Shown piece after piece: positions 8,923-28,961 of a stretch of DNA of 47,512 bases (positions within the stretch are counted from its first letter, which is position 1; each line of letters starts with the position of its first letter). Under the pieces are notes generated by a model. That model was not told the DNA's origin. It worked only from the letters and a program-made list of their open reading frames with translations, and ran no database searches. This stretch comes from a virus (taxonomy: Duplodnaviria; Caudoviricetes), in IMG/VR virus record IMGVR_UViG_3300032328_000467, positions 1-47,512 of that record. One strand, written 5' to 3'. The translations under genes and the position numbers were made by a program.

Positions 8923-11900
8923 ATGACCAACGCCTTCGGTCTTCCAGAAGATTTTGATAGTGAGTATCTAGGACCGCTAACGGCGGCGCTTTTCAACGAC
9001 AAGTGGAACTCTGGCGGTAACTCGGAAATCAACCGTCGTAAGAACGTTGCTATGCAGCGTCGTGACAAGCGTGGTCGTTGGGCGTGGCAGGGTGGTCGTG
9101 GTTTTTGGAAGGCCCTCCTAAACGGTAAAGTCACTAACTTTGTTGGTCGTTACCTAAGGGCGGATGACGACCCGAACTACATGATTTTTATTGTCGAGGA
9201 TGACAATGCTGAGGGTATTCCCGGTGGACTTTATCGTGTCAACCGACGTACCGTTACTATGGCTAAGGCTCTCCTTAGTGAAGAGACTTTGGAAGAGTCT
9301 GGCGTTGACCTAGACGTTAACGGTAACCGTGTTGGTGAGGTTCTTGATAGGGACCTTGAGGACGTTACGGCTAACTATCTCGGTCCTGCAACTCCTGAAG
9401 ATATTGCGTCTCTTGACAAGCCTACTGATGAAGAAAAAGCGGTTGTTAAGGCTAACCGTAAGGCTGCTAAGAATGCTAAGCCTTATAAGAGTTATAACGT
9501 TGTTGACGAAGACGGTAACCGTGTTGATTCTGACTCAGACCACGAAGACCCTTTCCCTGGTGAAGTAAACGCAACTGACGCGTTTACTCCTGAGCAACTT
9601 GCTTGGGCTAAGAGAAACTTTGCTGATTACTTTTTTGCTCAGGGACTATTCCCAGAGGCAAGCGACCAAGACCTGAGAAGGGCAATTGGTGGTCTAAAGA
9701 GTCGCATTGCTATTGCTGAACGTGGTGCCGATGACGAGGGTGGTCTTAGTCTTGACGACCTTAAGAAGAGACTTGACCTTGCTCAGACTGAAGAGTACAA
9801 CCGAGGCATGCTCAATCCAAAAGCGTCAAAAAGGTTTTTGGAAGATAAATTCCGCGCACGACTTGGGTTCCCGGCTAGAGGAGAGGCGGTTGCCCCCGCA
9901 GAGGAAGTAGTTGCCGAGCAACCAGCAAGCATTGGCGGTAAGTATGCTATCCGTCGTGTTGCGGATATGCTCGACGAGGCTCGTGCTGGCGGGGAAGAGT
10001 ACCGTCAGAAACTTGAGAATGGTGAGGACGTTCTTCCTAGGGGCGTTGACCAAGCGGCTGATGCTGAGAACCTTTTTGACCCTGAGGGTGTTGTTAACTA
10101 TGAGGAGAACTTCCGTGAGTGGGCTGGAAGCAAGATTGACAGCGACATTGCCACGGTTCAAGAACTTATTGATGTACTCGCAGAATTTCCTGAAGACGAC
10201 CCTAGAAAAGCAGATGCTCCAGAACTAACTTCTCTGCTAGAGACTCTTCTTGACGATAAAAAACTTTATACTACCCCTCAAGCCAGAATGGGCGAGCGGG
10301 GAAGAATTGCTAACTACCCAGAGTTTGCTATTGATGACAGTTTTATTGAAGATAGTTCTTTCACTCAGAATCAAAAACTTAGCCTTTACAACTTGGCTGG
10401 CTACATGGATAAAACTCTGGAGTCTCTTACGCAAGCAGGTTTGGTTGGGGACCAAGAAAAGTATGAGTTTCAGTACGCTGTAGCGTCACAAATTAGGGAC
10501 ACTCTTGAAGCGGCTAAGAGGGCCAATGATGAGGGAAGAGCGAGAAGTTTCTCCGTTTTTAGTGGTTCTGAGGAGGCGCGTTTCCAAAACATGCGTTTTA
10601 TTCAGTCCAGTATTGAAACGGAAGCGTCTCAAGACCCGAAACTTAAGGGACAACCTGTTGTTGTGCGGGCGCAGGCTATTGCTGTGAATAAGCACGGCAG
10701 ACCTATGGTTCTTAATTTTAATGGGTTCAGAATTGTTGCCAGTACTTTAGATGGTGGGACACTTGGGTATATCAATGATGTAGATACGAGAAATGGTGCT
10801 AACTATCACGATAATTCTAACGAACGAGATAAGCCAAGGCCTGTAAGCGTTGGAATGATTGCTGTCCACAATGCTGTGGGTCGCTATAACATGATGGCTG
10901 GACCTTCGGTACGAAACGAGGGTGTCGGTGGGTTCATGGTTAATATGGCCCGCTGGGTCTCTGTGCAGTCTGGGCGCCCATTTGAGCACAGTTACAATCT
11001 TTTGAACGCGGGAAACTTTTATTCCAAGTTGGTTTCTTTACGCACCGATTACCATTCACGTGAGCAACGTGACAAGTTCCTGTTTGAGCGTTTTGGTGGG
11101 TTGGACAACCCACTGTTTAAGGCACTGGATTCGTTGGGCTGGTTGACTGCAGATTTTAAGAAACCGCTTGGTATTAAAACTCAGACTTCTAGCGCCAACG
11201 TTGGCCCCTTGAATAAAAGATTTGTTATTCCGCTTTTTGGTGATAAAACTGCGTATTCTCCTGATGGTGGGATGGCTGGAATTCTTAGGGATGCGTACCA
11301 CAATGACCCTAATGCTCGCCCCGGTGTTGATTACCCAGCAATTATGGAAGACCACATTAAGGGTGAAAATGAAGACTGGTCTAAGTTTGATATTCAGCAA
11401 CTAATTCTTCGGAGTATTTATCGTGGTCAACTAAACAAAGAGCAATTGGTTGCCAGACTTAAAGAAATATCAACACAGTTTCGTGAGTTTGTAGATAGAA
11501 ACGAAAATGACCCGCCTGATTCAATGCGGATTATGAAAGCAGTTAAGCATGCTAAGGACGTTGTTAAGGCTCTCGAAGACGATAGGCTGATTGCTGCTCT
11601 CCGTCGTGCTGAAGACTTTACTGGAAAATTTGACGAGCAGCCTAAGTTTGACATTTTCAATGCTCAGTTCTTCCAGTCACCGTTCCCCGGTGCAAATTCT
11701 AATTTTGTAAACTTTAAGATTCCAGAGGGTGCCACTAAAGTTGATGTTCGCCCGACGTTTGTCCCTAGGGCGGTACGACCTGAAGGCTCCCCTGAGGGTT
11801 GGACTGAGAACCCCACAACTCTTGCTGGAATGTTTGGTTATGACGAACTTGTATTTTCACTTCAATCTGCCGTAAATTCCAACGACCAAGACGCCACCCT

Positions 11901-14900
11901 TTATTTCAATGGTGCAGAAGGCAAGGTTAACGTAGCAGCCGTTTACCGCGCAATTTCCGAGCAAGGCAGAAGAGCCGACGAAGTTCTGGCAACTATTTAT
12001 GACCAAATTGCTGGCAACGAAGATAACAAGAACGCACTTGCCGACCACGATGCTCAAATTCGTGGAATCAACGAAGAGATTGAGCGCGTTGCTGACGAAG
12101 TAAACCCGAATATGAAGGCACCAGTTGTTTTTGACGAAATCGGGGGCGTTTATGCGCCAAGACAAAATATTATTTTTGCGGGCCAGTATGTTCGTAGGGA
12201 TGTCCCCGACGAGTCTGGTCCTTTAAGAATTTCTCCTCTTCTTTCCAGAAACACTGACGTTGCTTTTGCTGGAAATAGAGGTAACGGAATTTATCCTGCC
12301 GCTTATGAACCGTCTTTGAGTTCAGACGACTGGTTACAAAGAGGAGTAACTGATAATCCAAGAATTATTGCACGAAACTTTAGCCCTTCTGCGTTAGAGG
12401 AAGCATTAAGAGCATATATTAATACTGACGGCAGAAACCGTCCTACCCTAGTCTTCCCTAATGGTAAGCAGGTTCAAGTTAAAATTGAGGCTATTAGAGA
12501 CGCTCTACAACATCAGGGTGTCGACACTGAGGCGATTATTAATGACCCCATCTACGCAGACATTGTTGTTGTAAGCAGGAAAGGGACAATTCCTCTTGGG
12601 ACGCTACGCACTGAGCGAGACGGTGTAGCGTATGAATCAGATTCCTATGAAATTGTTGGTGATGGGGCCCAGATTGCTGTCCTTACTGCTTCGGATGAAG
12701 TCGCAGTCGGTACTCCACAACTTATCGTTGAGGCCAAGCCCAATGGCGCCGCTGACCGAATTGTTCAGGCTACTGTCACAAAACTTCCAAGTGGAGATTT
12801 TGCTCTTAGTTATAACAGACCGTATGAACTTGGGGACGGTCAAGAGTTTGCGTATGTCGAAGAGTTTATGGATTTTGATTCGGCAGTTTTTGCTCTAAAT
12901 AAAGCAATTACTGATGATTACCACCTTAGACCTAATACTCTTCACAGAATTTATAGGTTGGTGAATGCTCCTGCTGCCAGTGATAACCCCCATCTTTATG
13001 GAGATGTCACTATTGAAGAGGGCTTAGAGGGTGGCATTGTTCGAAGAGTTTCGTACCGAAACAAAGGCGCTGCGGGTAACAGCGCCATCAACATTGAAGA
13101 AAGTTTGGGTGGGGGGCTTTACGCGTACTCCACACGGGTTGATTCTGCTGGTCAAATTAAGCGGGAAAGAATTGGAAAATTTGAGACTTCTGTTGATGAT
13201 GATGGAAACAGAACGTATGCTCTGACATCTTTCCCTGGCAATATTGGTAACTTTCTTTTGGGGTATAAGACTACTTCTAAAGAGAGCGCGACTGAGGTTC
13301 TTAAGTATATTGCTAGCATTCAAAATGCTTTGCCAGTTTTTATGGGGACAAGGGAAGACTTGTCTTTAGTACGCGAACGCTTGCTTAATAATCCTGAAAT
13401 TACAAAAATCTCTAACCTTAAGACTGAAACTGACGCCAGCGGAGTTACTAAATCTACGGCAGACTTAGTTATGGGGGACGGCAGGGCCGCAAAACTAACG
13501 GTTACTTATAACACTGTCAAGCAGGGGGTGTACCGTGTTAATGACCGTAATTATATTTATGCCACTGTTTCTATCGATAATGTCGATGGTGACTACATCT
13601 ATAGGGGTGCTATCTCTAGGACTTCTAAGTCTGGTTGGCTTGCTGATATTAGTGCGCCTGGTCAACAGTTTAGAGAACGTCCTTTAAGAAAGAGTGTTGA
13701 CCGTATTCCACCAGAAGAGGCTAAGAACATTCTGGTTGACGAATTTAAGCGGGTTTTGAGCGAAAAGTTTAAGATTTCTCCAGATAAAGTCCAGCAGATG
13801 ATTCCTGCTGGAACTCCCGTGGAGGGTATAACTGAAATTCCTGCGGGGCGTGTAGTTGACCCAATTACTGACCCCAATCTTCTTAGGCAGGGCGATGACG
13901 TTGCCGTTGGTTCTATGGAGCGTGCGAAGAATATTGTAGCCCGTATTGGTTCGGAGCAGATTGTTTTGCCTGCACGGTTCCTTGCAGAAGTTACTGCACG
14001 TAGCGAAGAAGTTAGGGGAAACAGACTTAAGACATTGCTCAAAAAACTCGGTCTTAACTCTATGGAAGAGCGGGGTGTAGTAAGCAGAATTACGGATGGG
14101 CAAGTGTTATTGGGTGCGAGTGGTCCTTGGAAGTTTGAGACGCTCAATGGTCTAGTTCTTAAGGTTAAGAACTATGCAAGAAACTGGAACGCGTCAAGAA
14201 GAAAAGACGGTCCGATTGACCCCGATGCTCAGTCGCGGGCGGTTAGAGGGGAGGTTGCGGCCCACGCGCTCTTTGATTTGCTCGGTATTCGTGCTTCTCC
14301 AGGCGGTATCGGTGTAACTGAAAGGGTTGCTGACAAGCCTACTAGAGAGGTTCTGGCTGAACTTTTTGAGCCGAATGTTGTCTCTGGTGAGGTCGGCGTG
14401 GCAGTAAACCAAGACGGTCAGCCTGTTGATGGCAATGCCCTTAAGTGGTTCAATACTCCAGCAGATAATCCTGATTTTGCTCAGGCTCAGCGGGATATTA
14501 TCGATATGCACGTCGGCGCTGCTCTTATTGGTACTTCTGACGTGAGGGATGATAACGCTCTTCTTAGCCGTGACCAGAATGGTGTTTTGAGAGTTACTAA
14601 TATTGATTTGGGTGGAAGCCTAGGTCAAGATATTGGTGGATACGCTTACGATAAGCGACAAGATGACAGTCTTTTTTCGAACAACATTTTTTCTTATTTT
14701 GAAAAAATGTTTGTTGATGATGGCAAGGAGGGTGAGTTACTTCAGGCTATTACCGAGGGTAATATGGATTATAGAATCTATCCAAGGGGTACTCGCCACT
14801 TGGGTGGAATTACGCTTGGGCAATTTAAGAAGAGTGTTGAGGAAAAGATTGCCCCTCTCTCGCCTAACGCGCTGAGAAAACTTTTTTCTGGTATTTATTC

Positions 14901-17900
14901 GGATGAGGAAGATAAGCAAAATGCTCTTAAGGGTGTGCTTCGTCGTCGGACTGACCTTTTGAGTCTTTTGAGCATTGAAGACCCGCACCGTGACGAGCAG
15001 ACGTTCGAGACTAGCGATGTCAGTTCTACTCCCTCTGTTGGTGGGGATGGTGGCGGAAGCGATGGCGGCGGAGGCGGCGGCGGAGGCGGCGGAGGCGGAG
15101 ACGATTCCGAAATTCCTGAGCCAGACTACACTCCAGCGGGCGTCAACCCACCATACAAAGTTCTTAGAAGGCGTTTTGTTAACGCTAATGGTATAAGCGT
15201 TGCTATCGATGTTGTGGAAAGAATTCCAGGAACAATCGACTACTATCTTCCAAAAACTGGCGAAAGAATTGGTGGCATTCGTCCAAGAGCCAACGGTGAC
15301 TACATTGTTACGTTTAGGGGTATGCGTACTGTCGTAAGACAAGACTTTATGGCGAATGAGCCTACGTTTAGGCAAGCACCCGCTCTTAGAGACGCTAAGC
15401 ATATTGCTTCTATGGAAGCGTTCTTTGGCAACACAATGGATGTGAATAGCACGGCAGAAGTTGAGTTCCCTGCTATTCTTTCTACTGAAGATGTGCCGGG
15501 ACAAATACTTCTTAGTGGCGGTATCAAGGGTTATTTGGACTCTCTTAAAGCCATAGTTACCCCAGAGGACAGACGTTTTGAGAATGAACCTGTAAAAATT
15601 ATTGGTCGTGAACATGGGTTGGCTGAAGCCGCGTGGGGTGGACGTGACAGTATTTACGCAGCACTGAAAACTAGACGAGTTCCACCCCAAGACACCGAGT
15701 ATTTCCTTTCTGTTGCAGACCTTGGCGTCGGGAGCCTTACTCAGCGTGAGGTTTTTGAAATTGTGGAGGAAATTCTAAGCCGCTATCCCGCGAATGATGG
15801 GAGCGATACTACAACTACTTCCCCGTCCACTGAAACCACTACTAAGAAGAGCGACAACGAGACTCCCGTTCCGCCTCAAGTTGAAACCGCAAAGAACGTT
15901 GCTGAACTTAAAGTAGGCGACTACATTGTCGGTATTGGTCGCGTTGCTTACGTAGTAGATGATGGTGGCAACGCAATAAATGTCGGTATTATCGATAACG
16001 CAGGAAAGTTCCGAAACAATCCTTATACGCGGAACGTTATGCTATTTATTAACAATCAGGCTGACCCGCGCCGTAACGTCACAAACATTGAGGGTGGACG
16101 TAACGCTGTTGACAACTTTGCTCAAGAGGGTAACAGAACTCTTGATGACGTAAAGGCTGCTTACCCGAACCACAGGATTCTTCCTAATGGCGACTTGCTA
16201 CTTGCGACCAAGGACGAGCGAGAGAAGTCTGGCGAAAAAAGAACTTTCCGCCACGAAGTAATTGTCCACCGTACTGGTACCGAAGAGTTTGTTTCGTATA
16301 TTCGTCGTTATCAGATTGACCCTAGAACTGGTCAGCGTATTGGTAACTTTACGGAGGCAGCGTTCCTCAGCGAACCAGCGCACTCTTCGCAAGCACTTCT
16401 CAACAGAATTCCCGGTCGACTTGCAATTCTCAGAGGTGAGGAGGGTAGGCTCGTTGCGAAGTTCCCGCAGCAGGGCGATTTCCAAGTTGAGGTTCGTGAC
16501 CCTCGTACGGGTATGCGTATTCCGCCACGACTTCTCCCAATTAGAAACGAAGATTTTATTGGTGATACTGGAATTGCCAAGACTGGCGACCCTGTAAAGG
16601 ACGCAGTTATTGGCTATATCTCTAACATGATTGACCGTGGATACTTGAATAACGCAGTTCTCAGCAGAATGCGCGATAACGGTATTCTTAATGAGCAACA
16701 GATTATGGACGTCATTGAGCGTGTTGAGGCGCGTCGACGGGCACCAGTTAACGCTGTTCCTTACGTTGGTCGTGACCGTCAGACTATTATTCGTGTTGGC
16801 GACGAGGTTGACCATTTTGATGCTCACGGTAACTTCTTGAAGAAGGGTAAGGTCACTGGACGCGTACCTCTTAAGGTTTACGTCAAACCTCCGTTCGGTG
16901 TTTACGAGTATCAAGACCTTGTTACTGTCCGTTGGGAGGATGGCACTACTGGACCTGCTATTTCTTCCAGACGTCTACAGCCTACGAAGCGTGCGAACGG
17001 GGAGGCACCAGTTCCTCTTGGCGGAGAAATTCTGAACCCGTTCATTGAGCAGGAGGGTCCTGAAATTGATGACATGGACAACCCGAACTTTAGGGGGGCA
17101 GTTGCTCAGCGTAACAGAATTCAGCCTATTCCTGTTCCTAATGGTTATGAACTTCGCGGTCCAGACCCGACGACTAGTTATTCGTTTGTCTCTGTTGACA
17201 ACCCTAGCGGTCCTATGGCTCAGGTTCAGATTATTGATGGTATGTGGGTTGCTAGGTTCCAAGCATCTCAAGGTGCCCCAGTAGAAGAGAAGCGGTATGT
17301 AAACGAAATCCAAGCACGCAACTGGGCTATCAACCAAATCAATAAGGCTAATGCTACGGAGACTGAGCGTTCTAGCACGAGTACTCCCCCCGGCGGCGGC
17401 GGCGGCGGAGGCGGCGGCGGCGGAGGCGGCGGAGGCGGCGGAGGCGGCGGAGGCGGCGGTTCGCCAAGTTCGTCGGATTCGGAAGTTTCCGACCAACTTG
17501 ACACTGAAGTTTGGGTGGACAACCAAGATAAGGCAGAAGACTTTGAGGACAGCCAAAACACTGGCGGATTCCCATTCGGTATCATTACAAACCTAAACGG
17601 CCGAGGAAACGTCATTCAATACGGTGAAGTTCCAGACGAGCCGGGCGAATTCTTTGTCCAAATGGAAGATGAAAACGAGGAAGAAATATTCAGAGCAGAC
17701 GGGTATAAGGGTATTGAAGAAGTTCGTAGACTCGCTTACCAGTTAACTAACACTTTCCCCAATAACTACCACGAACTGGTTATGGAAGACGGGAAGATTA
17801 GAACTGTCCACGTTGATAACGAAGATAAACCGATGCCGTTCGCATCAAGAGACGGTCAAACGATTGAGTTTTATGACGCCCAAGGTAGAAGAATTTCTAG

Positions 17901-20900
17901 ACATGAGCAAGTTGAGGACTTTATTGCTGTCCGTAAGTTTGTCAAGGACAAACTTGATGAGATAAACAGGCAGGCTCCAAGTACCAGTACCAGTGACAGT
18001 GCCATCGGAAGCGAAGTTCCTCAAGAGTTTATTGACGCTGGCGTTCGAAACCCAGACGCAGACTTGCCAGAAGGCTGGGAACACTATGCTATGACTATTG
18101 GTGGACGCCCGTTCGGTGTTTACCGTAGAGGTGACAACAACATTCAGTATTTGGAGAACGAGGACGGCAACTATATAGCGCGTGTTCAAGACAGTGCTGG
18201 GTTGGAAGTAATTAGTTACGAATTTTATAATTTTGTTGAGGCTAGGAAGTACGCGTTAGGTCTTGCTAAGAATCTTCCAGAGGGGTACCACATTGAAGCG
18301 CCAGAAGGATTTGGTGCTCAAGAGTACAGACTTGTGAAGGACAACATTGAGGGCGATAACATTGTTGGAATCATGGGGCAGAATCAACCTGGGGGTAGAA
18401 GGGTTCTCGTTACCAACGGTGGCAACATCGTTTTTGAAGAACGTTTTGATGACTATGAGGAAAATCTTTCTGAAGCGCAGGACATTTTAAGACGAGTACT
18501 TGAACGTCAGAACTTTGCTGCTCCCGTTGTCGATGACGCTATTGACAACGGTGAAGTGAACGTTCGACTTCCTGAGGGCTATCAGCGTAGAGAAGACGCT
18601 AGAAGATTTATTATCTTTGAGCGTGGTCTTGGCGACCCTGAGGTCACTATTGACCGTCTGCGTGACGCCGACGGAAAAATTAAGGTTATTGCTGAAAAAC
18701 TAAAGAACGGTCTTGGCGGCAACTTAGAGAAGAGAACGTTTACGGTTGACAACGCTGAAGAAGCAGCGTTGTTGGCGCAAAGAATTCTTCAGTCTTCTGT
18801 TCTCCCTGAGGGGTACCGAGTTAAGCCCAACTCGGCTGACCCAACAATTTACCTTATTGGTAAATTTAATGAAGATGGCAACATCAACATTGTTAATGGT
18901 CCTCAGGCTTCGATTGTCCCGATTGGTGACCGAAACAACCCCAGTGGTTACAGTATTCGTATCCACAGAAGAGGCGAAAACGGTCAACTTCAAATGTTTG
19001 CCGAGTACGATGTAGACATTTCTGGTGGTGACCGTGCTTCACTTGAAAGAGCAATCCGTATGGGCACCGCCCTACTCAATGAGCGTATGGACGCCGAAAA
19101 CAATAACCAAGAAGACGCCAAACCTCCTCAGGATTGGGTGGTACAGGAAATTGGCGACGGATATAAAGTTATTGTCGGTGGTCGCCCGCAGGGTGTGGAG
19201 TACAACGTTCGTGGAGACGGCTACGTTACTGTCGATGGTGGACAAGACAGGGAAGCACCAATTCGTGTTATGGCTGTCAAGTTTAGTGAAAGAGGCGAAG
19301 ACCGCGCAGACAATAAGCGTCGCGTTTTGAATGGTATTGCTCGTATTGAGCAAGCCGCTGACGTCGACGCGAGACTTCGAGGTCAAGGTGCCCAAAACCA
19401 AGACCCAATGGTGCTCGCTGCTGACAGAATTGACATGGCGGATGTTCCGTTTGGTCAAGGATTGCCTGACGGTTTTGAGGAAAAAATTAACCCCAGTGGT
19501 CAAATGGTTACGATTAGCGGCGAGGTCAACGGTAAAGAGGCGCGTATTTACTATGCGACAAAGACTGGCGACAACGGTAAGTTCGAGGCGCGAGTATTTT
19601 TTGATGGTCGTGAGGTTGGAAACTTCAATGAAGACAACATGAAGGATGCTAGAGAACGTGCGCTCAATGTGTTGACCGAAATAATTCGCGCACAGCAGGG
19701 CGGCGGCGGCGCTGGAGCAGACGTCGGCATTGAAGGTTATGTCGAAGAGTTTAGGGAAGACTGGGGAAACTTTATTTCTCCCCCCGGATTCAAAGATATG
19801 CCTCCGCTACGACGAAACCGTTTAAGAAAGCCGTTCGGTTGGTACAGGTTAGAGCCTGACGAAAGGGGCAGGTTTGGGACTAACTTTTTCAACTATGACT
19901 CCAATGGCCGAATGACACAAGAGCAAGAAAAATTTGCTACTAAAGAAGAAGCGCGACAGCATCTTATTGACAAAATCAAAGCAGAACTCCCTATCCGTCA
20001 AGCCGAAGAAGCACTAAGAGCCGAAGGAATTGCTCTTGGTAGAGGTCTTCCTCAAATTCAAGGTCCCGAACAACTTAAAGAAGAAATCACTCCTCTCGGA
20101 AAAATGGTCCGAATTATGGGTAAGCATAACGATGTCGAAATTGCTGCCTATTACGGTGTTGCTCCGACTGATAGTGGTCAATTCGAGTACAAGATTTACT
20201 CAAACGGAACAATCGTTTCGCAGGGATTTGAGCCAGATATTCCCGGCGTACGTGAGGCTGCTCTAGACGGGCTTCGGGGAGTAATCGATAGGCTCGATGC
20301 TCTTGGAAACGGTGGCGGTGGTGGCTTCCTTGGAAGACTTCCAGCGGGATATAAAGTTAGAAATCTCGACGCCGTTGGCCTCAAAATTATTCACGGGGAC
20401 GACCCTCGACAGCCCGCCATTGTTTGGAACATGGCTGACGGAGAGGTTTACTATTTCAAGAGTTATCAGCGTTATGTTGACCGTGGTTTTGACGGCGCTG
20501 AGGATGCTGAAACGGATGTTTTTGACCAAGTAGATTTCCAAGAAAAGGCCGTTGACCACATTGTTAATGAACAGATACAGAACCTTGCAAATCTCCAGTT
20601 CAATGAGGCATATAAGCGCGAACTGAACGATAGAGAACTTGTTGCCCAACTTCCTGCTGGATACCAGTATGAAGTGAGGGGAATGGATGATTTTTATTTC
20701 CCCCCCACTGTTTACTATAACCCCGATGACCCGAACGCTAAAGCAGTTGTGATTGGTGCGGATGATGGGATAGTACGCATATATAACAATTATCAAGAAG
20801 TTGTCGATGAGGAGGGGGCGCGTGAGACGTATGACGACATGCAAGACCCAATTCGTGCTCAAGTAAAAGCCATTAAACTTCTTAATCCTGACGCGCTGAA

Positions 20901-22899
20901 CCCGATTCCTGCTGGCGTCGACAGCATTGACAACCGCGAATTCAGCAATGACGAAATTGTTGCTCGACTTCCTCAGGGTTACCGACACAGAATGATGGCT
21001 AACAAATTAGTGTTTATGGGGGACGACCCCGACCAGCCTGCCGTAATTTTTGATGATGTTGGGCAGTTATACTTCTTCAAAAAATGGCGTGACTATTTAG
21101 ACAATGATTTGCGTGGAGCCGAGCGAAAAACTGAAGGCAATATGCGTGGACCCGCCACTCAGAAAGCAATTATTGATTATATCAAGGACAACCAGCCCGG
21201 TGCTGGCGGGCAGGGAGTAGTTTTCAACGTCGTTCCTCTTGGTAACGACGGTGTTGTAGCGCAACTTCCTGCTGGCTATCGACACCGACCCTACCGAGGA
21301 AACGAAGTTTTCCGAAGGGAAAACGCTGACCGATACGCTTGGATTACTCCGAACAACCGAGTGCAGTATTGGGAAACCAGAAGCGGATATGTTCGTGGAG
21401 ATGAGCCTGCATTTGACCAAACTTTTGCTGACCGCGTAGAGGCAGAGCAAGCGCTGATTAAACTTATCAACACTGGAAGTTTTGCACAACAGCCAGCAAC
21501 ACCAGCAGTCAGAGACATTCCTGAGGGTTATGTTCGTAATGAGGCACTTGGTGGTCAACTGATTGATATTGATGTTGACTCCAACGACCCAGATGCACCA
21601 AATAAGCCTTCTGGTTTTGTTCAGTTTGATGTCGATACTGGAACGTGGAAGGCTCGTTATTGGGAGACTCAGCAGTCGCGTTCTGACCTTAATAGGGCAG
21701 ATAATATTACGGAGCACGCTAACGCAGAAGATGCCTTAAATGACTTGATTGACCAAATCAATGCTCGTGTTGAGGCTATGCGTGGACGCCAACCTGGTGA
21801 ACTTCCTGAAGGTTACATTATGGAAAATGTTGCTAGTGGCGACAATGCGTATGAAGTTAAGAACGCTAACGACCCAGACAACAATCTGTTTGTTCTTGTG
21901 GAGAAGGGTGCTGACGGAAAGTGGACTGCCTCTAAGTGGGCTACTGGACAAGCAGCCGCAGCCGCACGTTATCGTAGACCTGATTCTGCACAGACGTTTG
22001 ATACGCGTGAAGAAGCCCAAGTGTGGGCGGCAGACCAAGTTGCTGACCCTCTTGCTGAATTTGCTGACCTCACACTTACCGCTGGTGAATTGGCTATCAT
22101 TGCCGCCGACGGTGGTCAAATTTCTCCAAGAATGAGAGCGTCTTTGGAGATGAAGAGAGCGTTCTTGGCTGGGCATACCGTAGACAGAAGCGCATACCTA
22201 GACGGTAGCGGAAAGACTAAAAAAGTTATTTTGTCTGACGGAACCGTTGCGTACTTAAAAAAGGCAGGAAGGCTTGATGCTGACGATGTTGGACAGGCTG
22301 CTAGAGAGATGGCATCCGCAAGATTATTTGAGGCAGTGGGAATTCCACAAGACTTAGTAATGTGTGAAATTGAGGACATACAAACTGGAAAAATTCACGT
22401 TCTTTTTAAGGATGTCGAGGCTGAAGGCAAAGGCCGTGATTTTAGAAATGATGTTCGTTCCTATGATGGTGCTAGAGAAGTGGCACTTGTAGACGTATTA
22501 ATTGACAACGTCGACAGACACACTGGTAACTGGTACTACAGAAACTCTGACAGAATGATTTTGCCTATTGACAACGGTTATAGTCACTATGATTTTGACC
22601 GACAAAGAGGTGACAGAAGTAGAGCAAACATGACCCGCAACCGCATGGGACGTGACCTAGGGTTCGAAGCGCGTGACGGACTGCCTCCCGGATACGTAGA
22701 CAAATTTAGACCTCTAATTGCAGAATGGGCAGGGGGGCAGAGGGAACTTTTCTCTCAAGATGAAATGGAGAGGATTGCCGAAAGAGTTCGTGGACTTCGC
22801 GCAATGTATGAAGGGATGGGTTCCGATATGTTAGCATATTACGAGAACCGTATTTTGCCACGTTTAGATATATTACTAGGAATTTCGAGAGGAAACTAA
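8923..22899 (+). CDS. giant (4658 aa) multidomain head-associated protein: GNAT-like domain, two PI3K/PI4K-HipA-like kinase domains, repeats, poly-Gly linkers
   Basis: Uninterrupted 14-kb ORF with RBS AGGAGA. C-terminal DVLIDNVDRHTGN...IDNG. Internal GEVAAH...DVRDDN...IDLG. RNEGVG...HSYNLLNAG motif, LP(E/A)GY repeats, and position between portal and protease. Confidence 0.9.
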   Translation: MTNAFGLPEDFDSEYLGPLTAALFNDKWNSGGNSEINRRKNVAMQRRDKRGRWAWQGGRGFWKALLNGKVTNFVGRYLRADDDPNYMIFIVEDDNAEGIPGGLYRVNRRTVTMAKALLSEETLEESGVDLDVNGNRVGEVLDRDLEDVTANYLGPATPEDIASLDKPTDEEKAVVKANRKAAKNAKPYKSYNVVDEDGNRVDSDSDHEDPFPGEVNATDAFTPEQLAWAKRNFADYFFAQGLFPEASDQDLRRAIGGLKSRIAIAERGADDEGGLSLDDLKKRLDLAQTEEYNRGMLNPKASKRFLEDKFRARLGFPARGEAVAPAEEVVAEQPASIGGKYAIRRVADMLDEARAGGEEYRQKLENGEDVLPRGVDQAADAENLFDPEGVVNYEENFREWAGSKIDSDIATVQELIDVLAEFPEDDPRKADAPELTSLLETLLDDKKLYTTPQARMGERGRIANYPEFAIDDSFIEDSSFTQNQKLSLYNLAGYMDKTLESLTQAGLVGDQEKYEFQYAVASQIRDTLEAAKRANDEGRARSFSVFSGSEEARFQNMRFIQSSIETEASQDPKLKGQPVVVRAQAIAVNKHGRPMVLNFNGFRIVASTLDGGTLGYINDVDTRNGANYHDNSNERDKPRPVSVGMIAVHNAVGRYNMMAGPSVRNEGVGGFMVNMARWVSVQSGRPFEHSYNLLNAGNFYSKLVSLRTDYHSREQRDKFLFERFGGLDNPLFKALDSLGWLTADFKKPLGIKTQTSSANVGPLNKRFVIPLFGDKTAYSPDGGMAGILRDAYHNDPNARPGVDYPAIMEDHIKGENEDWSKFDIQQLILRSIYRGQLNKEQLVARLKEISTQFREFVDRNENDPPDSMRIMKAVKHAKDVVKALEDDRLIAALRRAEDFTGKFDEQPKFDIFNAQFFQSPFPGANSNFVNFKIPEGATKVDVRPTFVPRAVRPEGSPEGWTENPTTLAGMFGYDELVFSLQSAVNSNDQDATLYFNGAEGKVNVAAVYRAISEQGRRADEVLATIYDQIAGNEDNKNALADHDAQIRGINEEIERVADEVNPNMKAPVVFDEIGGVYAPRQNIIFAGQYVRRDVPDESGPLRISPLLSRNTDVAFAGNRGNGIYPAAYEPSLSSDDWLQRGVTDNPRIIARNFSPSALEEALRAYINTDGRNRPTLVFPNGKQVQVKIEAIRDALQHQGVDTEAIINDPIYADIVVVSRKGTIPLGTLRTERDGVAYESDSYEIVGDGAQIAVLTASDEVAVGTPQLIVEAKPNGAADRIVQATVTKLPSGDFALSYNRPYELGDGQEFAYVEEFMDFDSAVFALNKAITDDYHLRPNTLHRIYRLVNAPAASDNPHLYGDVTIEEGLEGGIVRRVSYRNKGAAGNSAINIEESLGGGLYAYSTRVDSAGQIKRERIGKFETSVDDDGNRTYALTSFPGNIGNFLLGYKTTSKESATEVLKYIASIQNALPVFMGTREDLSLVRERLLNNPEITKISNLKTETDASGVTKSTADLVMGDGRAAKLTVTYNTVKQGVYRVNDRNYIYATVSIDNVDGDYIYRGAISRTSKSGWLADISAPGQQFRERPLRKSVDRIPPEEAKNILVDEFKRVLSEKFKISPDKVQQMIPAGTPVEGITEIPAGRVVDPITDPNLLRQGDDVAVGSMERAKNIVARIGSEQIVLPARFLAEVTARSEEVRGNRLKTLLKKLGLNSMEERGVVSRITDGQVLLGASGPWKFETLNGLVLKVKNYARNWNASRRKDGPIDPDAQSRAVRGEVAAHALFDLLGIRASPGGIGVTERVADKPTREVLAELFEPNVVSGEVGVAVNQDGQPVDGNALKWFNTPADNPDFAQAQRDIIDMHVGAALIGTSDVRDDNALLSRDQNGVLRVTNIDLGGSLGQDIGGYAYDKRQDDSLFSNNIFSYFEKMFVDDGKEGELLQAITEGNMDYRIYPRGTRHLGGITLGQFKKSVEEKIAPLSPNALRKLFSGIYSDEEDKQNALKGVLRRRTDLLSLLSIEDPHRDEQTFETSDVSSTPSVGGDGGGSDGGGGGGGGGGGGDDSEIPEPDYTPAGVNPPYKVLRRRFVNANGISVAIDVVERIPGTIDYYLPKTGERIGGIRPRANGDYIVTFRGMRTVVRQDFMANEPTFRQAPALRDAKHIASMEAFFGNTMDVNSTAEVEFPAILSTEDVPGQILLSGGIKGYLDSLKAIVTPEDRRFENEPVKIIGREHGLAEAAWGGRDSIYAALKTRRVPPQDTEYFLSVADLGVGSLTQREVFEIVEEILSRYPANDGSDTTTTSPSTETTTKKSDNETPVPPQVETAKNVAELKVGDYIVGIGRVAYVVDDGGNAINVGIIDNAGKFRNNPYTRNVMLFINNQADPRRNVTNIEGGRNAVDNFAQEGNRTLDDVKAAYPNHRILPNGDLLLATKDEREKSGEKRTFRHEVIVHRTGTEEFVSYIRRYQIDPRTGQRIGNFTEAAFLSEPAHSSQALLNRIPGRLAILRGEEGRLVAKFPQQGDFQVEVRDPRTGMRIPPRLLPIRNEDFIGDTGIAKTGDPVKDAVIGYISNMIDRGYLNNAVLSRMRDNGILNEQQIMDVIERVEARRRAPVNAVPYVGRDRQTIIRVGDEVDHFDAHGNFLKKGKVTGRVPLKVYVKPPFGVYEYQDLVTVRWEDGTTGPAISSRRLQPTKRANGEAPVPLGGEILNPFIEQEGPEIDDMDNPNFRGAVAQRNRIQPIPVPNGYELRGPDPTTSYSFVSVDNPSGPMAQVQIIDGMWVARFQASQGAPVEEKRYVNEIQARNWAINQINKANATETERSSTSTPPGGGGGGGGGGGGGGGGGGGGGGGSPSSSDSEVSDQLDTEVWVDNQDKAEDFEDSQNTGGFPFGIITNLNGRGNVIQYGEVPDEPGEFFVQMEDENEEEIFRADGYKGIEEVRRLAYQLTNTFPNNYHELVMEDGKIRTVHVDNEDKPMPFASRDGQTIEFYDAQGRRISRHEQVEDFIAVRKFVKDKLDEINRQAPSTSTSDSAIGSEVPQEFIDAGVRNPDADLPEGWEHYAMTIGGRPFGVYRRGDNNIQYLENEDGNYIARVQDSAGLEVISYEFYNFVEARKYALGLAKNLPEGYHIEAPEGFGAQEYRLVKDNIEGDNIVGIMGQNQPGGRRVLVTNGGNIVFEERFDDYEENLSEAQDILRRVLERQNFAAPVVDDAIDNGEVNVRLPEGYQRREDARRFIIFERGLGDPEVTIDRLRDADGKIKVIAEKLKNGLGGNLEKRTFTVDNAEEAALLAQRILQSSVLPEGYRVKPNSADPTIYLIGKFNEDGNINIVNGPQASIVPIGDRNNPSGYSIRIHRRGENGQLQMFAEYDVDISGGDRASLERAIRMGTALLNERMDAENNNQEDAKPPQDWVVQEIGDGYKVIVGGRPQGVEYNVRGDGYVTVDGGQDREAPIRVMAVKFSERGEDRADNKRRVLNGIARIEQAADVDARLRGQGAQNQDPMVLAADRIDMADVPFGQGLPDGFEEKINPSGQMVTISGEVNGKEARIYYATKTGDNGKFEARVFFDGREVGNFNEDNMKDARERALNVLTEIIRAQQGGGGAGADVGIEGYVEEFREDWGNFISPPGFKDMPPLRRNRLRKPFGWYRLEPDERGRFGTNFFNYDSNGRMTQEQEKFATKEEARQHLIDKIKAELPIRQAEEALRAEGIALGRGLPQIQGPEQLKEEITPLGKMVRIMGKHNDVEIAAYYGVAPTDSGQFEYKIYSNGTIVSQGFEPDIPGVREAALDGLRGVIDRLDALGNGGGGGFLGRLPAGYKVRNLDAVGLKIIHGDDPRQPAIVWNMADGEVYYFKSYQRYVDRGFDGAEDAETDVFDQVDFQEKAVDHIVNEQIQNLANLQFNEAYKRELNDRELVAQLPAGYQYEVRGMDDFYFPPTVYYNPDDPNAKAVVIGADDGIVRIYNNYQEVVDEEGARETYDDMQDPIRAQVKAIKLLNPDALNPIPAGVDSIDNREFSNDEIVARLPQGYRHRMMANKLVFMGDDPDQPAVIFDDVGQLYFFKKWRDYLDNDLRGAERKTEGNMRGPATQKAIIDYIKDNQPGAGGQGVVFNVVPLGNDGVVAQLPAGYRHRPYRGNEVFRRENADRYAWITPNNRVQYWETRSGYVRGDEPAFDQTFADRVEAEQALIKLINTGSFAQQPATPAVRDIPEGYVRNEALGGQLIDIDVDSNDPDAPNKPSGFVQFDVDTGTWKARYWETQQSRSDLNRADNITEHANAEDALNDLIDQINARVEAMRGRQPGELPEGYIMENVASGDNAYEVKNANDPDNNLFVLVEKGADGKWTASKWATGQAAAAARYRRPDSAQTFDTREEAQVWAADQVADPLAEFADLTLTAGELAIIAADGGQISPRMRASLEMKRAFLAGHTVDRSAYLDGSGKTKKVILSDGTVAYLKKAGRLDADDVGQAAREMASARLFEAVGIPQDLVMCEIEDIQTGKIHVLFKDVEAEGKGRDFRNDVRSYDGAREVALVDVLIDNVDRHTGNWYYRNSDRMILPIDNGYSHYDFDRQRGDRSRANMTRNRMGRDLGFEARDGLPPGYVDKFRPLIAEWAGGQRELFSQDEMERIAERVRGLRAMYEGMGSDMLAYYENRILPRLDILLGISRGN
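15064..15099 (+). repeat. GGC/GGA microsatellite encoding Gly12 linker
   Basis: Direct reading; follows the first kinase-like domain. Confidence 0.9.
17392..17460 (+). repeat. GGC/GGA microsatellite encoding Gly23 linker
   Basis: Direct reading; (GGAGGCGGC)n units. Confidence 0.9.
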
Positions 22900-23192
22900 T
22901 GCTTGCTTTTTATGATTCAGACACCAATAAACTTATTGGAACAGTAAAACTTGTTGACGGTAAAAAGGTTATTGAGGCTAAAGCAGAATTAGATTATAAT
23001 TTTTTAGAAAGTATATCGGGCAATACGGAGCAGGGTACTCAAATGTTTTTTGAGCAGTTTACTGACTACGGTAGTATGTCAATGTACACCGCAGAATTTG
23101 CAGATGACGAAGTAGCACCCGACCCCGCCCCATTATCTGAAGAGCCTCCTGAAGTTTGGACTGCAGAAGAGATAAAAAAGAAATGGAGATGA
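22899..23192 (+). CDS. small acidic protein, candidate immunity/partner of the C-terminal kinase
   Basis: TAATG stop/start overlap with the giant ORF; acidic, 97 aa. Function inferred from position only. Confidence 0.7.
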   Translation: MLAFYDSDTNKLIGTVKLVDGKKVIEAKAELDYNFLESISGNTEQGTQMFFEQFTDYGSMSMYTAEFADDEVAPDPAPLSEEPPEVWTAEEIKKKWR

Positions 23193-23198
23193 GGCTAA

Positions 23199-23882
23199 GT
23201 GCCTACAAAAAATTCGACGTTTAATATCAAGTCCACAACCATAAAGCCCGTTTTTCCTACGGTTGGTGTTCTTATGTCTGCTCAGGGAACTGACGAACAG
23301 GCGGAGGTTTCAACGTTTGTTGGTGCTTACTACGACACAAACGAGGAGTTTCAGGGGCTTTACATTGCCAAGCCAGATGGTTCATTGGACTATTTTGATA
23401 TTGAAATTGAGGACATTGTTGCTCAGGGGAGTGACCAACTTATTCGTTTTGATGCTGAGGGAAAAAACTATCTTCTAAGGCCTTTGTATACAGAAGACGG
23501 AGAGTTTATTTCTAAGTACAAGATTGACTTACCAAAGTTGGTTTTGGAAAATAAAATTATTTTGGAGTCGAAGCCAGCAATTGAAAAGTTTACTGGCGTA
23601 GAACTTGACGATGACGAAGTTCCATTTTTTGAAGGTTTGTATTGTTACTACTTGGTAGATAGCCCAATCATTATGAGCATTATCTATATGTCTTCTGCTG
23701 GAATTTTTGCTAGAAGAAACGGTGAGTGGAAGTTAGAAAACCTTATTCCTGATATTTATGAGGGCATTCCAGCGTTTGAAATAAGCGTTGATGGAGCAAA
23801 ACAACTTCTCGACCAGTTTGATAAAAACAACAACAAATTCTCTACGGAAGACGCTAAAAAATTATCGGTTGACCCCGAATAA
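23199..23882 (+). CDS. acidic hypothetical protein
   Basis: 227-aa ORF with GAGG RBS before GTG, in operon context. Confidence 0.75.
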   Translation: MPTKNSTFNIKSTTIKPVFPTVGVLMSAQGTDEQAEVSTFVGAYYDTNEEFQGLYIAKPDGSLDYFDIEIEDIVAQGSDQLIRFDAEGKNYLLRPLYTEDGEFISKYKIDLPKLVLENKIILESKPAIEKFTGVELDDDEVPFFEGLYCYYLVDSPIIMSIIYMSSAGIFARRNGEWKLENLIPDIYEGIPAFEISVDGAKQLLDQFDKNNNKFSTEDAKKLSVDPE

Positions 23883-23927: not shown

Positions 23928-26900
23928 ATGTCGCAGTTTATCGGAAGGCGCAATGACTTAGCAGTCTACGCCAACGACACCAACTACGTTGAGATTGACA
24001 CCAATCTAAATGTTGTTGTTGCTTCTGGATACACCAGCGATATTGAGTCTTCTGAAATTACAAAAACTTTTGAGTCCCACGACGGTTCGACTGTAGAACT
24101 AGCCGCAAGTGCTTTGTCAGTTTTAGGACCTAAGGCACTAACCGCAGCAGCGCGTCTCTACACTATTCCAGAGGGCGTCAAGAAAGAGGCAAAGAAGTCT
24201 CTTGAATGGCGCAAGGAGCACAAGCGCGGTGGCACTCCTGTTGGACTAAACACTGCCCGCACTCTTTCTAAGGGTGGACAGATTGGTATTGAAAAAGTAC
24301 GCCACATCGCTAAGTATTTCCCTCGTCACGAAGTTGACAAAAAGGGTAAAGGCTGGGAGCCAAGTGAAGACAACTTCCCTAGCAACGGGCGTATCGCGTG
24401 GGCACTGTGGGGTGGCGACGCGGGGTGGCGTTGGGCTAAAGCAATTGTCGAGCGTGAGGAAAAGAAAGCACTCAAGGCTGACGGCTATATGCAGGATATT
24501 GGTGCTGACCTAAGCCCATTCAATATGGCTGAAATTTATGATGAAAGCGTTGCCCCAGAATTTCTAGCCCGCGTCCATATGGACGGCTCAGGAATTGACA
24601 GAGTTTACAAGGTCGATTTAGACGGTTCTGTTTATGTTTGGGACGACGGCGCTTGGGACAATGCTGGTATCCGAGGTGGTGACATTTGGGTTTATGACGA
24701 TTCACTCGATGAACTTCGAGGAGACGATAGCCAGTCGCACATTATTATTGACCCAGATTCAGCAATTGTTGTTTGCGCGAAACTACAGAACAATCCTTTC
24801 AAAAAAGTTCTTATTAGTGAAATTGACCCAGAAGAGTACGCACTATTCGAGGGTTATGAAGATGATGACGACAATGAACTGGAGTTTATTGATGATGTCA
24901 TTATCGCTGCTCTCCCGCCACAAGCGCCAGCAGATGGATATACGTCTGCGGAACGTTCTGAGAATGTTCAAAAGCAACCACGTGACGCTCGCGGTCTTTT
25001 TGTCCAAGTTGGTAAAAACGTCGTTGTTGGTGGAGATTCGCAAAATGGTCGTGGTGAAATTAAATCAATCAATGACGATGGGACGGTAAGTGTCCGTTTA
25101 CTTGATGGTCGAGTGATTAACGTTGACTCTAAACTAACTGAAACGTACACTGCTCCTAGAGGTGGAGAAACTCAAGTTGCGAAAGAACAATCTTCTCCAT
25201 CATCAGATGAGCCACTTGACCTTTCTGGAATTATTGGTGAGCCACGCACCCCGCAGAACATGCCTAAAGCGCGACTACCTGGCACCCTTCCCCCTATTAG
25301 CGCCAGTGACTTACATTCTGTTCTTACGGACTGGGACGGTTGGGTAAAGTCTCAGCGCGGTCAGTTTAAAAAACCAAAACCTTCAGAGGGTGACCACCCA
25401 CTTATTCAGAGACTGGCTAATCGTGGCGGTGGAAACAGCAAGCGTGCTCCTTTGTCTGACACCGCTGATGCGTGGGCGCGTCCAGTAACTTCAGCAGCGG
25501 AACCAAAAACTTCTGACGTTCAGCCTCTTTACCTAGCAATTGTTTCTCCTGAAGACCCTCGTGCGGTTATGGATTTAGTTGCTGTTGTTCCTGCCAGCGC
25601 CACTTCTAATTCTCCTATGACGTATGTTCGTAAGGAAGAGGAGTGGGTGCGTGACCCGCAGTTCTTGGAAGACTTGAAATCTGCTACGCCACCCCCCGTT
25701 GTCCCACTTAAGCCAGAAGTACTTCAAGACGTTCTTCAGCAAGTTGATTCGATTACTGCTAGTGCTTACAACCATTCGCTTATGGTTTTGTGGGGTCCAC
25801 GAAAAGATGTAATGGAAGCCAAAGAAGCAGAGTTCGTGGCTGACCTAGAATCACTTTTCGCTGTCGGTGGTGCAGACAAAAATCGTGGCAATGCTGAAAA
25901 TCTACGTAGGTACTGGACTCGTGGCAAGGGCGCTGCGAAGATTCGTTGGGGCACTCCCGGTGACTGGACGCGTTGCGTAAAGTATCTCAGTAAGTATCTT
26001 GGTATTCGCGCAAAGGGTTACTGCCAATTGCGTCACAAGGACGCCACTGGTATGTACACTGGCTCGCGTAACAACCCTGGTAACGAAAACGCTATGGAAG
26101 AGCCTATGTATGGTTTCCCCGGCGTGGACACGATTGACATTACTGAAGAAGATTTGCTTATCCCTCTTGATGAAATTATGAAGGAAAGCGACGACCTTTA
26201 CGAAGCCAACTGGGAGCCAGAAGAGGAAATTGTTGCCGCGCTCAAGGAACTCAACGAGTGCGCCGACGAAGAATTTGAAGCACTAGTTGCTGCTGCTTGG
26301 TGGGAGGGAAGTGGGCGTAAGGCTCGAAGACTGAAACGCTACTGGACTCGCGGTAAGGGCGGTAGAGCCAAAATTCGTTGGAACAGTGGTGGCGACTGGT
26401 ACCGCTGCGTTCGAAATCTAACTAAGTATCTTGGACCTAGAGCCAAAGGTTATTGCGCCTTACGCCACAAAGAAGTTACAGGTATGTGGACTGGAGACAG
26501 AGCACACCTAATCAAGTACGGTGGTCGTGTGGGGGGCAGAGCAAACTTTGCTAACGATACTCTAAAGTCGAGCGAGCAGATTATTTCGGAGTTCCAACTT
26601 AGGGCTAAAGCACAAGAAATTAAAGAATCTGCTGGTCTAGTTGCGTCTGGTGTTTACGACGATTCAGTCGGACCACGTTTCTCTATTCCGCTTGTAATTC
26701 CTGAAGAGCACGAATCTGGCGACGGAAGAAGTTTCCAGAAAGAGGCTATTTCTTGGAGAGAATTCCCCCTACCTCTTATGTGGCAGATTCAGACTTCTGA
26801 CGGCCACAACGGTTCTGTTGTAGTTGGTCGCATCGACCATATGGAACGGGTGGAAAATGGAATTGGAAACTGTTACGGCGTTTTCGATACTAGCGCACAC

Positions 26901-28961
26901 GCTCAAGAAGTTGTGCGACTTATCAAGAATGGCTTTATCAAGGGTGTCTCAGCCGATATGGATAAATTTGAGGCTACCGAAATAAAGGAAGAAAAGTCCG
27001 AGAACGCTGATGACAAAAAGCGTATCGGCAAAGACAAAATTGTTATCACTAAGGCAAGAGTGATGGGAGTCACGATTGTCCCCAAACCAGCCTTCCAAGA
27101 GTGCAAAATCGTACTTGCGGAAGAACCCAACTCACAGGAGGAGCCAGTCATTATGGACGACGGCATTTATGTGGGTGACGTCGATTTCAGTGACGCCCAA
27201 AGCCTAGTTGCTTGTGGTGTAGTTGCTGGTGCAATCCCCGTCAACCCACCGACAGAGTGGTTTGACAATCCAAAACTGGATAAAGCCACACCACTAACCG
27301 TTGACGACACTGGTCGCGTCTTCGGTCACATCGCTGCGTGGCACGTAGACCACATTGGTCTATCGTTTGGGACAAAGCCACCACGCTCAAAGAGTAACTA
27401 TGGTTACTTCCACACGGGTGTTGTACGCACTGATTCGGGTAAGGATGTTCCAGTTGGACAACTTACTCTTGCTGGTGGGCACGCTTCTCTCGAAGCAAGT
27501 GCTTCGGAAGCAATCAAGCACTATGACGATACTGCGAGTGCTATTGCTGACGTTCACGCTGGCGAGGACCAATACGGTATTTGGGTGTCTGGTGCTCTTC
27601 GCCCCGGTGTCCAGCCTGAGCAGATTCGCGCACTTCGTGCTTCAGCACCTTCTGGTGACTGGCGACCAATTCGTGGTTCGCTGGAACTTGTTGCTGTTTG
27701 TCAGGTAAACGTTCCAGGCTTCCCAATTGCTCGCGCCCGCGTTGCGTCTGGTGCTGTTATGGCGCTCGTTGCGGCTGGTGCTATGTCACTTGCCAAGATG
27801 AAGTCAGACCCGTTTGGTGAACTTACGGAACTGCAAGAGCGAGTTATGAAACTTGAAAAGGGGACTAGCCAAGAACTATCCGCCAAAGTAGAGTCTGCCC
27901 GCGAATTGTTCAATCAAGTTAGAGAAGAGCGTAATGCTGAACTTAGTGTTAAAGCACAGGAACTTTCAGCAAAACTAGACGCAGTTTTCTCATACGAGGA
28001 TGACTTTGCCTACATTTCTCGCAGAGAGCGAACTGGCCTTGCTGAAGAAGGTAAGGCTATGCCAGACGGTTCTTTCCCAATTCGAAACATTTCAGATTTG
28101 AAAAATGCGGTTCAGTCTTATGGTCGCACTAGCGAATCTAAGAGGGCTTCGGTTAAACGTTTTATTGAGAAACGTGCTCGTTCGCTTAAGCGCCCAGACC
28201 TTATTCCTGACGAGTGGAAGGAAGCGTCTAACGCTGAGTTCTCGCAGAAGATTGAGGCTATGCGTTCACGTATTTCTGAGGCTTCGACGTTCGCAGTGCC
28301 GGGTGAACTTCCAGTAGGGGAAGATGTTGCCCCCGCAGAAGAAAGCATTCCAGCACCTGCAGGAGACGTGACGCCGGGAAAATCTAGTGCGGTTGAGCCT
28401 GCGGTAGAGGACGTAAATGCCCCTACCGTTGAGAGTGGACTTAAAGTTGATGGTGTCTACACTCCTAAGACTCAACCGCGTGACGCTAAAGGTAAGTTCC
28501 GCCAGGTTCTTGCCCGCCTAAAGTCGGACATTGGAACTTCTGGTCTTCAGAATGCTGTCGAGGAAGCCCGCGCAGTTGGTGCTTACTATGAAATTGGTGA
28601 TTACGTCAACTCCGCTGGGGCAGCCGTAAAACTTCTCGATATCGTAGACCGACTTGACGCGGGAGCACTCAACTCTACATCCATTGAAAATGTGCGTTCT
28701 TCAGCAGCAGAACTTGGAAAAGTTATTGCTAACCTTCCGCTTGGTTTTAATGACCAAACGGAAAAGGTTCGCTATAGCGATTTGCCACCTTCGCTTCAAA
28801 ACCTCATGGACGACATGATGGAGCGGGTGGAAAAAAAGATTGGTAAGGATGACGCAGAAATTGCTACCGCAGAACTAGAAGCGTTCAGGTCTGGTTCTGA
28901 TGTTTACAGTCAGGGAGAAATCTCTGGCCAAATGTCAAAAATGCTAAGACTTCTTACCTAA
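23928..28961 (+). CDS. modular capsid maturation (prohead) protease polyprotein
   Basis: Protease-like core ESGDGR...LPLMWQ...GHNGSVVVGRID...GVSAD...GVTIVPKPAF (~26680-27120). Following domain GHIAAWH...PPRS...YFHTG, plus accessory domains. Directly upstream of the capsid gene. Confidence 0.85.
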   Translation: MSQFIGRRNDLAVYANDTNYVEIDTNLNVVVASGYTSDIESSEITKTFESHDGSTVELAASALSVLGPKALTAAARLYTIPEGVKKEAKKSLEWRKEHKRGGTPVGLNTARTLSKGGQIGIEKVRHIAKYFPRHEVDKKGKGWEPSEDNFPSNGRIAWALWGGDAGWRWAKAIVEREEKKALKADGYMQDIGADLSPFNMAEIYDESVAPEFLARVHMDGSGIDRVYKVDLDGSVYVWDDGAWDNAGIRGGDIWVYDDSLDELRGDDSQSHIIIDPDSAIVVCAKLQNNPFKKVLISEIDPEEYALFEGYEDDDDNELEFIDDVIIAALPPQAPADGYTSAERSENVQKQPRDARGLFVQVGKNVVVGGDSQNGRGEIKSINDDGTVSVRLLDGRVINVDSKLTETYTAPRGGETQVAKEQSSPSSDEPLDLSGIIGEPRTPQNMPKARLPGTLPPISASDLHSVLTDWDGWVKSQRGQFKKPKPSEGDHPLIQRLANRGGGNSKRAPLSDTADAWARPVTSAAEPKTSDVQPLYLAIVSPEDPRAVMDLVAVVPASATSNSPMTYVRKEEEWVRDPQFLEDLKSATPPPVVPLKPEVLQDVLQQVDSITASAYNHSLMVLWGPRKDVMEAKEAEFVADLESLFAVGGADKNRGNAENLRRYWTRGKGAAKIRWGTPGDWTRCVKYLSKYLGIRAKGYCQLRHKDATGMYTGSRNNPGNENAMEEPMYGFPGVDTIDITEEDLLIPLDEIMKESDDLYEANWEPEEEIVAALKELNECADEEFEALVAAAWWEGSGRKARRLKRYWTRGKGGRAKIRWNSGGDWYRCVRNLTKYLGPRAKGYCALRHKEVTGMWTGDRAHLIKYGGRVGGRANFANDTLKSSEQIISEFQLRAKAQEIKESAGLVASGVYDDSVGPRFSIPLVIPEEHESGDGRSFQKEAISWREFPLPLMWQIQTSDGHNGSVVVGRIDHMERVENGIGNCYGVFDTSAHAQEVVRLIKNGFIKGVSADMDKFEATEIKEEKSENADDKKRIGKDKIVITKARVMGVTIVPKPAFQECKIVLAEEPNSQEEPVIMDDGIYVGDVDFSDAQSLVACGVVAGAIPVNPPTEWFDNPKLDKATPLTVDDTGRVFGHIAAWHVDHIGLSFGTKPPRSKSNYGYFHTGVVRTDSGKDVPVGQLTLAGGHASLEASASEAIKHYDDTASAIADVHAGEDQYGIWVSGALRPGVQPEQIRALRASAPSGDWRPIRGSLELVAVCQVNVPGFPIARARVASGAVMALVAAGAMSLAKMKSDPFGELTELQERVMKLEKGTSQELSAKVESARELFNQVREERNAELSVKAQELSAKLDAVFSYEDDFAYISRRERTGLAEEGKAMPDGSFPIRNISDLKNAVQSYGRTSESKRASVKRFIEKRARSLKRPDLIPDEWKEASNAEFSQKIEAMRSRISEASTFAVPGELPVGEDVAPAEESIPAPAGDVTPGKSSAVEPAVEDVNAPTVESGLKVDGVYTPKTQPRDAKGKFRQVLARLKSDIGTSGLQNAVEEARAVGAYYEIGDYVNSAGAAVKLLDIVDRLDAGALNSTSIENVRSSAAELGKVIANLPLGFNDQTEKVRYSDLPPSLQNLMDDMMERVEKKIGKDDAEIATAELEAFRSGSDVYSQGEISGQMSKMLRLLT

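Follow-up and report, generated by a model that had tools for sequence, protein, structure and literature searches.

Head-packaged, swappable effector domains are an already described phage strategy, represented by the polyvalent proteins (Iyer et al. 2017, PMC5512222) and the MuF polymorphic toxins (Jamet et al. 2017, PMC5576092; Zhang et al. 2012, PMC3482391); packaging and injection are themselves predictions in the accessible text of PMC5512222, PMC9503650 and PMC5576092. On kinases, the accessible parts of these sources yield the following: PMC5512222 reports a family without the C-terminal subdomain in phages of Verrucomicrobia-Chlamydia and Bacteroidetes, Zhang et al. list a lantibiotic-type Tox-Peptide Kinase, the word “kinase” is absent from the main text of PMC5576092, “HipA” does not occur in the first 300,000 of the 354,187 characters of PMC3482391, and the accessible text of PMC9503650 and PMC7911831 adds no such kinase. 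In the literature searched, no publication describes phage head proteins tipped with a HipA/PI4K-type kinase, and the supplements of the MuF and polyvalent studies may list such domains. The best-studied phage kinases, T7 kinase and JSS1_004, disable host defences (PMC13645617). Here, we analyzed the viral record IMGVR_UViG_3300032328_000467 (positions 1 to 47,512; the window, 47,512 nucleotides), in which one of the genes of the head region specifies a giant protein that ends in a predicted kinase of the atypical HipA/PI4K2/CtkA fold group.

A predicted kinase at the end of a giant head-region protein

The giant polyvalent-type protein (8923..22899, + strand; 4,658 amino acids, aa) is encoded between the portal and prohead protease genes, and its final ~250 residues form the tip. 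An original prediction made from the window sequence had placed a C-terminal PI3K/PI4K-HipA(CtkA)-like kinase at 22190..22896; the domain was recovered, with a start nearer 22150 (22150..22896, + strand), a little earlier than proposed. All five ordered motifs of that prediction are in frame with the open reading frame (ORF): GSGKT (22204-22218), AYLKK (22249-22263, containing K4446), REMASARL (22303-22326, E4462), DRHTGN (22513-22530, D4531 to N4536, with D4531-R-H and an upstream D4524) and IDNG (22567-22578, D4550), the last two exactly where they had been located. The beta3 Lys, alphaC Glu, catalytic DxHxxN and Mg-binding Asp are invariant in 19 of 19 alignment rows. The ordered pattern K..E..DxHxxN..[ILV]Dx[GSE], composed after the motifs had already been seen, occurs once in the giant protein and in 0 of 2000 shuffles. 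The Gly-rich GSGKT is present but is not kept as such among the 19 homologues, where the first Gly is found in 17 and the second in just two (Asn in 13); this variability ruled out a Walker A motif, and the segment is therefore better described as a variable Gly-loop.

Profile searches with the single tip sequence, the check that the original prediction had proposed, gave a weak match to PF00454 (PI3/PI4 kinase; E=0.0033, 17.8 bits, below the gathering cut-off of 27.1) that spans a 34-residue catalytic stretch alone, and no Pfam match at E<=1 to HipA_C or Couple_hipA, either for the tip or for the 97-aa ORF behind it. Across the tip family, PF00454 was matched at E<=0.05 by 17 of 18 members, and HipA_2 weakly by two of 18 relatives. 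Two related ORFs of 522 and 574 aa (L101:1565-4862), both with a C-terminal kinase of the tip type, scored above the PF00454 cut-off. At the structural level, a kinase-fold match was found in the HipA/PI4K2/CtkA group: the predicted tip model is bilobal with a helical C-lobe and shares 9-14% structural identity with known members of that group. Fold matches also occur in haloviruses and other phages. A single-sequence AlphaFold model of the tip was unusable (pLDDT 34.8). The tip is thus predicted to be a kinase of this fold group with all catalytic residues, and the earlier assignment stands for fold and intact catalytic residues, whereas lipid and protein types are tied in the top structural matches. 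Automatic labels are already attached to similar phage domains in UniProt.

Single-sequence searches with the tip returned no match in IMG/VR, PDB, GenBank phages or long proteins of 2,561-8,152 aa. Metagenome scans and further viral scans yielded zero confirmed relatives, which kept the gene neighbors of the closest kinases (P0029-P0032) out of view. A DNA pattern for PIDNGYSH gave two matches, both unrelated, and a GTDB scan two that were weak and short. DNA from the end of the giant gene also occurs in other runs: in X3, which belongs to the study of the possible source run, as a contig at 22559-22845 (two differences), and in X5, a freshwater metagenome from a second study, as 151-nt records at 22051-22201 (two differences) and 22378-22528 (no differences). 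No RNA dataset with the tip sequence is listed.

Tip exchange among relatives and the genes behind the tip

The kinase domain is an exchangeable C-terminal tip of the giant protein. In the closest relatives (five loci, four distinct giant proteins of 3,924-4,242 aa) the kinase tip is absent throughout; these orthologues resemble the window protein from its N-terminus, through its internal kinase-like domain, to ~aa 4378 in the repeats, and then end. Of 49 large ORFs whose C-termini are complete (a count that includes duplicated contigs and two rows that are protease halves), 13 (10 distinct contigs) have this kinase as their tip, 12 an HExxH domain, seven an ART-like domain, defined by our own motif and not by a Pfam match, and 17 something else. 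Of 28 database homologues, 27 have the whole kinase domain at the C-terminus and the remaining one is partial. On a portal tree of 19 rows (with L017 and L028; without L024, L068, L058, L094, L097 and GMA2), the kinase label requires three or more gains or losses, and placing all kinase bearers in one clade was rejected (p-AU 9.4e-6). The same exchange is seen in cultured phages, as gp82 of Microbacterium phage Pumpernickel ends in the kinase tip (E=8.7e-13) and gp68 of its sister Cece is kinase-less, while L109 and L105 encode, next to a portal gene, a fusion of this kinase to Phage_min_cap2 (MuF2). The “toxin position” originally ascribed to the domain is thereby borne out, although the word toxin is too narrow for a head-associated polyvalent context in which one cultured carrier, Pumpernickel gp82, lacks a small partner gene of its own.

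More distant relatives (L081-L100, L117) encode giant proteins with UvrD or PIF1 helicases, NUDIX, ADPrib_exo_Tox and GNAT domains. In L119 (16746-17571), ORFs of 202 and 71 aa stand in place of the window's kinase and 97-aa gene and are possibly a detached tip cassette; by eye, the 202-aa ORF resembles the DUF3626-like tip of L007, with no Pfam match.

Directly behind the tip lies an acidic orphan ORF of 97 aa (22899..23192, + strand), whose start overlaps the stop of the giant gene (TAATG) and which is missing, along with the kinase, from all closest orthologous loci. No homologue of it was detected among the ORFs of 123 loci and the window. Its product is a plausible candidate for an inhibitor or chaperone of the kinase. 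Co-folding of the two proteins, run without folded controls, scored 0.04 against a mark of 0.32, which is evidence neither way. A HipS-like nature, suspected by eye, was dropped as the protein had no Pfam, Atlas or PDB match, and no HipB/HipS antitoxin operon was found beside the tip, whose neighbors are head genes and this orphan ORF.

The next gene (227 aa; 23199..23882, + strand) belongs to a family of 23 ORFs that follow giant genes with various tips or none and is therefore not kinase-specific. Its orthologue stands directly 3' of the giant gene in three of four kinase-less relatives, and in L119 the 202-aa and 71-aa ORFs lie between. A different arrangement marks the clade-A kinase loci, which form one portal lineage: a gene of their own of 187-199 aa comes next in 11 of 11 (8 distinct contigs) and at no other locus, and no 227-aa-family gene was found there. 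The clade-A partner protein had no Pfam, Atlas or PDB match.

Proposed role of the tip and competing readings

We regard it as an even chance that the whole of the following chain holds, in which the giant head protein is packaged with its kinase tip, injected with the DNA and phosphorylates host proteins early in infection. Packaging would proceed through an N-terminal module carrying QxRDxxGRW (9010..9330, + strand; aa 30-136), common to the giant proteins of relatives and to the prohead-protease polyprotein, which it matches at aa 335-427 (E=4.7e-12, iterated profile of 98 proteins). This module is a candidate head-targeting element, and its presence in both proteins suggests recruitment of the two to the prohead. 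The tip may then be released by prohead-protease cleavage and, following what is modelled for polyvalent and MuF proteins, enter the cell with the phage DNA, where it would phosphorylate presumed protein substrates on Ser/Thr and so blunt defence or redirect translation. During late synthesis the 97-aa protein might restrain the kinase. A post-portal protein does occur in virions of Gordonia phage GMA2, in which Orf10 was detected by mass spectrometry (supplementary table, PMC4524720). The same Orf10 (L118:7981-10632) has a weak C-terminal Acb1/2H-phosphoesterase match (E=0.0008), making it a candidate packaged anti-CBASS enzyme.

Several points weigh against this chain. Kinase activity, packaging and injection of the giant protein are all predicted only; GMA2 Orf10 is its positional equivalent, with no homology detected; no MuF domain was matched in the giant protein by Pfam or PHROG; and the passage of 4,658 aa through a siphovirus tail is unexplained unless the protein is processed. 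Lipid kinases tie with protein kinases in the sequence searches and fold searches of the tip alike. Similarity between the 97-aa protein and the clade-A partner was not found (hhalign 0.2%), and behind Pumpernickel gp82 there is just a generic 227-aa-family gene, with no clade-A partner match in that genome; a tip without a dedicated small gene weakens the inhibitor step.

The small genes can also be read as immunity factors. In a MuF-style toxin-immunity pair, the kinase would poison non-immune cells, either competitors or cells that rival phages superinfect, and the 97-aa protein would protect the lysogen. The joint gain or loss of tip and 97-aa gene in the closest lineage argues for such a pair, as do the gene behind every clade-A kinase and the small ORF reported behind 89.4% of genes encoding MuF toxins, according to the accessible text of PMC5576092. 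The generic gene trailing gp82 speaks against it, and the clade-A partner is confounded with ancestry, being restricted to one portal clade that has no detected 227-aa-family gene; we consider this account rather unlikely. Alternatively, the kinase might not be injected at all but be made with the head genes and phosphorylate host or virion proteins during assembly, much as CotH phosphorylates spore-coat proteins. Assembly evidently does not need it, as the tip is absent from the closest relatives. The tip is also interchangeable with peptidase-like and ART-like tips and is fused to MuF2 in other phages, and we consider a late-acting kinase unlikely.

A further reading takes the tip for a lipid kinase proper, which would act on host phosphatidylinositol at the membrane while the DNA enters. 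Against this stand the fold matches in haloviruses and further phages with hosts of very different lipid composition, and the confinement of the PF00454 match to its short catalytic stretch; Microbacterium-type hosts, moreover, are not known to be phosphatidylinositol-rich. We judge it improbable, and give the same low credence to an elaborated version in which a virion-delivered lipid kinase makes a phosphoinositide signal at the entry site, alongside the other kinase of the polypeptide and with the 97-aa protein as inhibitor. Substrates within the HipA/PI4K2/CtkA group are mixed, so that an effector acting on a sugar, nucleotide or cell-wall precursor can be envisaged. Zeta-toxin-like kinases fused to MuF, as given in the accessible text of PMC5512222, offer a functional precedent; none of the 50 fold matches listed for the tip is a small-molecule kinase, and this option is very improbable.

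If the packaged and injected protein kinase is real, a head-borne enzyme would act ahead of any phage transcription. The family adds a HipA/PI4K-fold kinase to the effectors that tip MuF and polyvalent proteins, among which the papers searched do not name it. The proposal is directly testable, because the cultured phage Pumpernickel carries the tip on gp82 and its near relative Cece does not on gp68.

Gene neighborhood, likely host and comparison with known systems

The window covers a phage late region in the order terminase, portal, Dps, 178-aa ORF, giant gene, 97-aa ORF, 227-aa ORF, prohead-protease polyprotein (23928..28961, + strand), major head protein and tail genes. Judged from its genes, the phage likely infects an actinobacterium, because the portal protein (6058..7833, + strand; phrog_776, E=2.3e-102) has its closest GenBank matches in Actinomycetia phage DSL-LC01 (69%) and in Microbacterium phage Pumpernickel (62.5%), the genera among the listed matches of 877 matching records are actinobacterial, and two kinase homologues bear the names of Micrococcales metagenome-assembled genomes. 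DSL-LC01 is itself metagenome-assembled, with a predicted host, according to the accessible text of PMC10611076.

Directly 3' of the portal gene is a Dps/ferritin gene (7844-8317; Pfam E=2.5e-15), which in several relatives is fused into longer ORFs and in L081 and L098 into the protease region. The following 178-aa ORF (8337..8873, + strand) corresponds to the N-terminus of a giant protein in most relatives and is likely the remnant of a lost first giant gene. The closest relatives (L119, L121-L123) have two tandem giant genes, the first with the 178-aa module, a DRAT-like ART and an HExxH tip and followed by genes of 76 and ~100 aa; the window and L017 keep the 178-aa module alone, and L015 and L027 have two giant genes each.

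Within the giant protein, a second kinase-like domain (14086..14961, + strand; LVLKVK, RGEVAAH, SDVRDDNA, IDLGG) represents a different, divergent family, related to the tip family in profile-profile comparison (88%, E=3.1e-6) and without a sequence match in Pfam or PDB. Only the window's protein combines both kinases among the 49 large ORFs. Further members of the internal family, whose consensus is GSN.GG..YVK..HA.NE..NWDV..DN..R.D.GG, are found in Gordonia phages, in DSL-LC01 and in Pseudomonas, Yersinia and Aeromonas phage proteins labelled as ADP-ribosyltransferases. Diverged repeats of ~75-100 aa precede the tip (17470..22062, + strand). At ~10700-11050, a region common to L015 and L017 and without a Pfam match contains by eye what we take to be a GNAT acetyltransferase-like signature (RNEGVGG at 10912). 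The lengths of two poly-glycine tracts in the giant gene (15053-15110, 17379-17462) are uncertain, since contigs of the possible source run break at these tracts.

The fold-group members compared were the HipA/HipT toxins, CtkA, actin-fragmin kinase, PI4K type II, Fam20, CotH and MavQ; no HipB/HipS-like or DNA-binding antitoxin context was found for the tip, which ends a 4,658-aa phage protein. The T7 kinase and JSS1_004 are expressed early and made after entry, unlike a domain of a head-gene product. They share with the tip a functional analogy only, as phage-encoded kinases directed against host defence, and belong to a different family with a DPV motif (PMC13645617). Like the polyvalent proteins in the accessible text of PMC5512222, the giant protein is very large, multi-domain and encoded among virion genes; profiles distinguish two kinase-like domains in it and a GNAT-like motif can be made out by eye, and ART, GNAT, metallopeptidase and helicase domains occur in its relatives, as in polyvalent proteins. 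In contrast to the kinases of that source, the tip keeps a full helical C-lobe in its model and occurs in actinophage-like viruses. With the MuF polymorphic toxins, as far as the accessible text of PMC5576092 and PMC3482391 goes, it shares the post-portal position, the variable C-terminal enzyme and a small ORF behind, but no MuF domain was detected by Pfam or PHROG. Pumpernickel gp82 (OK040790, annotated “hypothetical protein”) has the same locus, N-terminal module and C-terminal kinase, differing in its length of 2,235 aa and in lacking the internal kinase and a dedicated small gene downstream. Overall, the tip is best filed as an effector variant of the head-associated polyvalent/MuF strategy rather than placed within the PI4K or HipA family proper.

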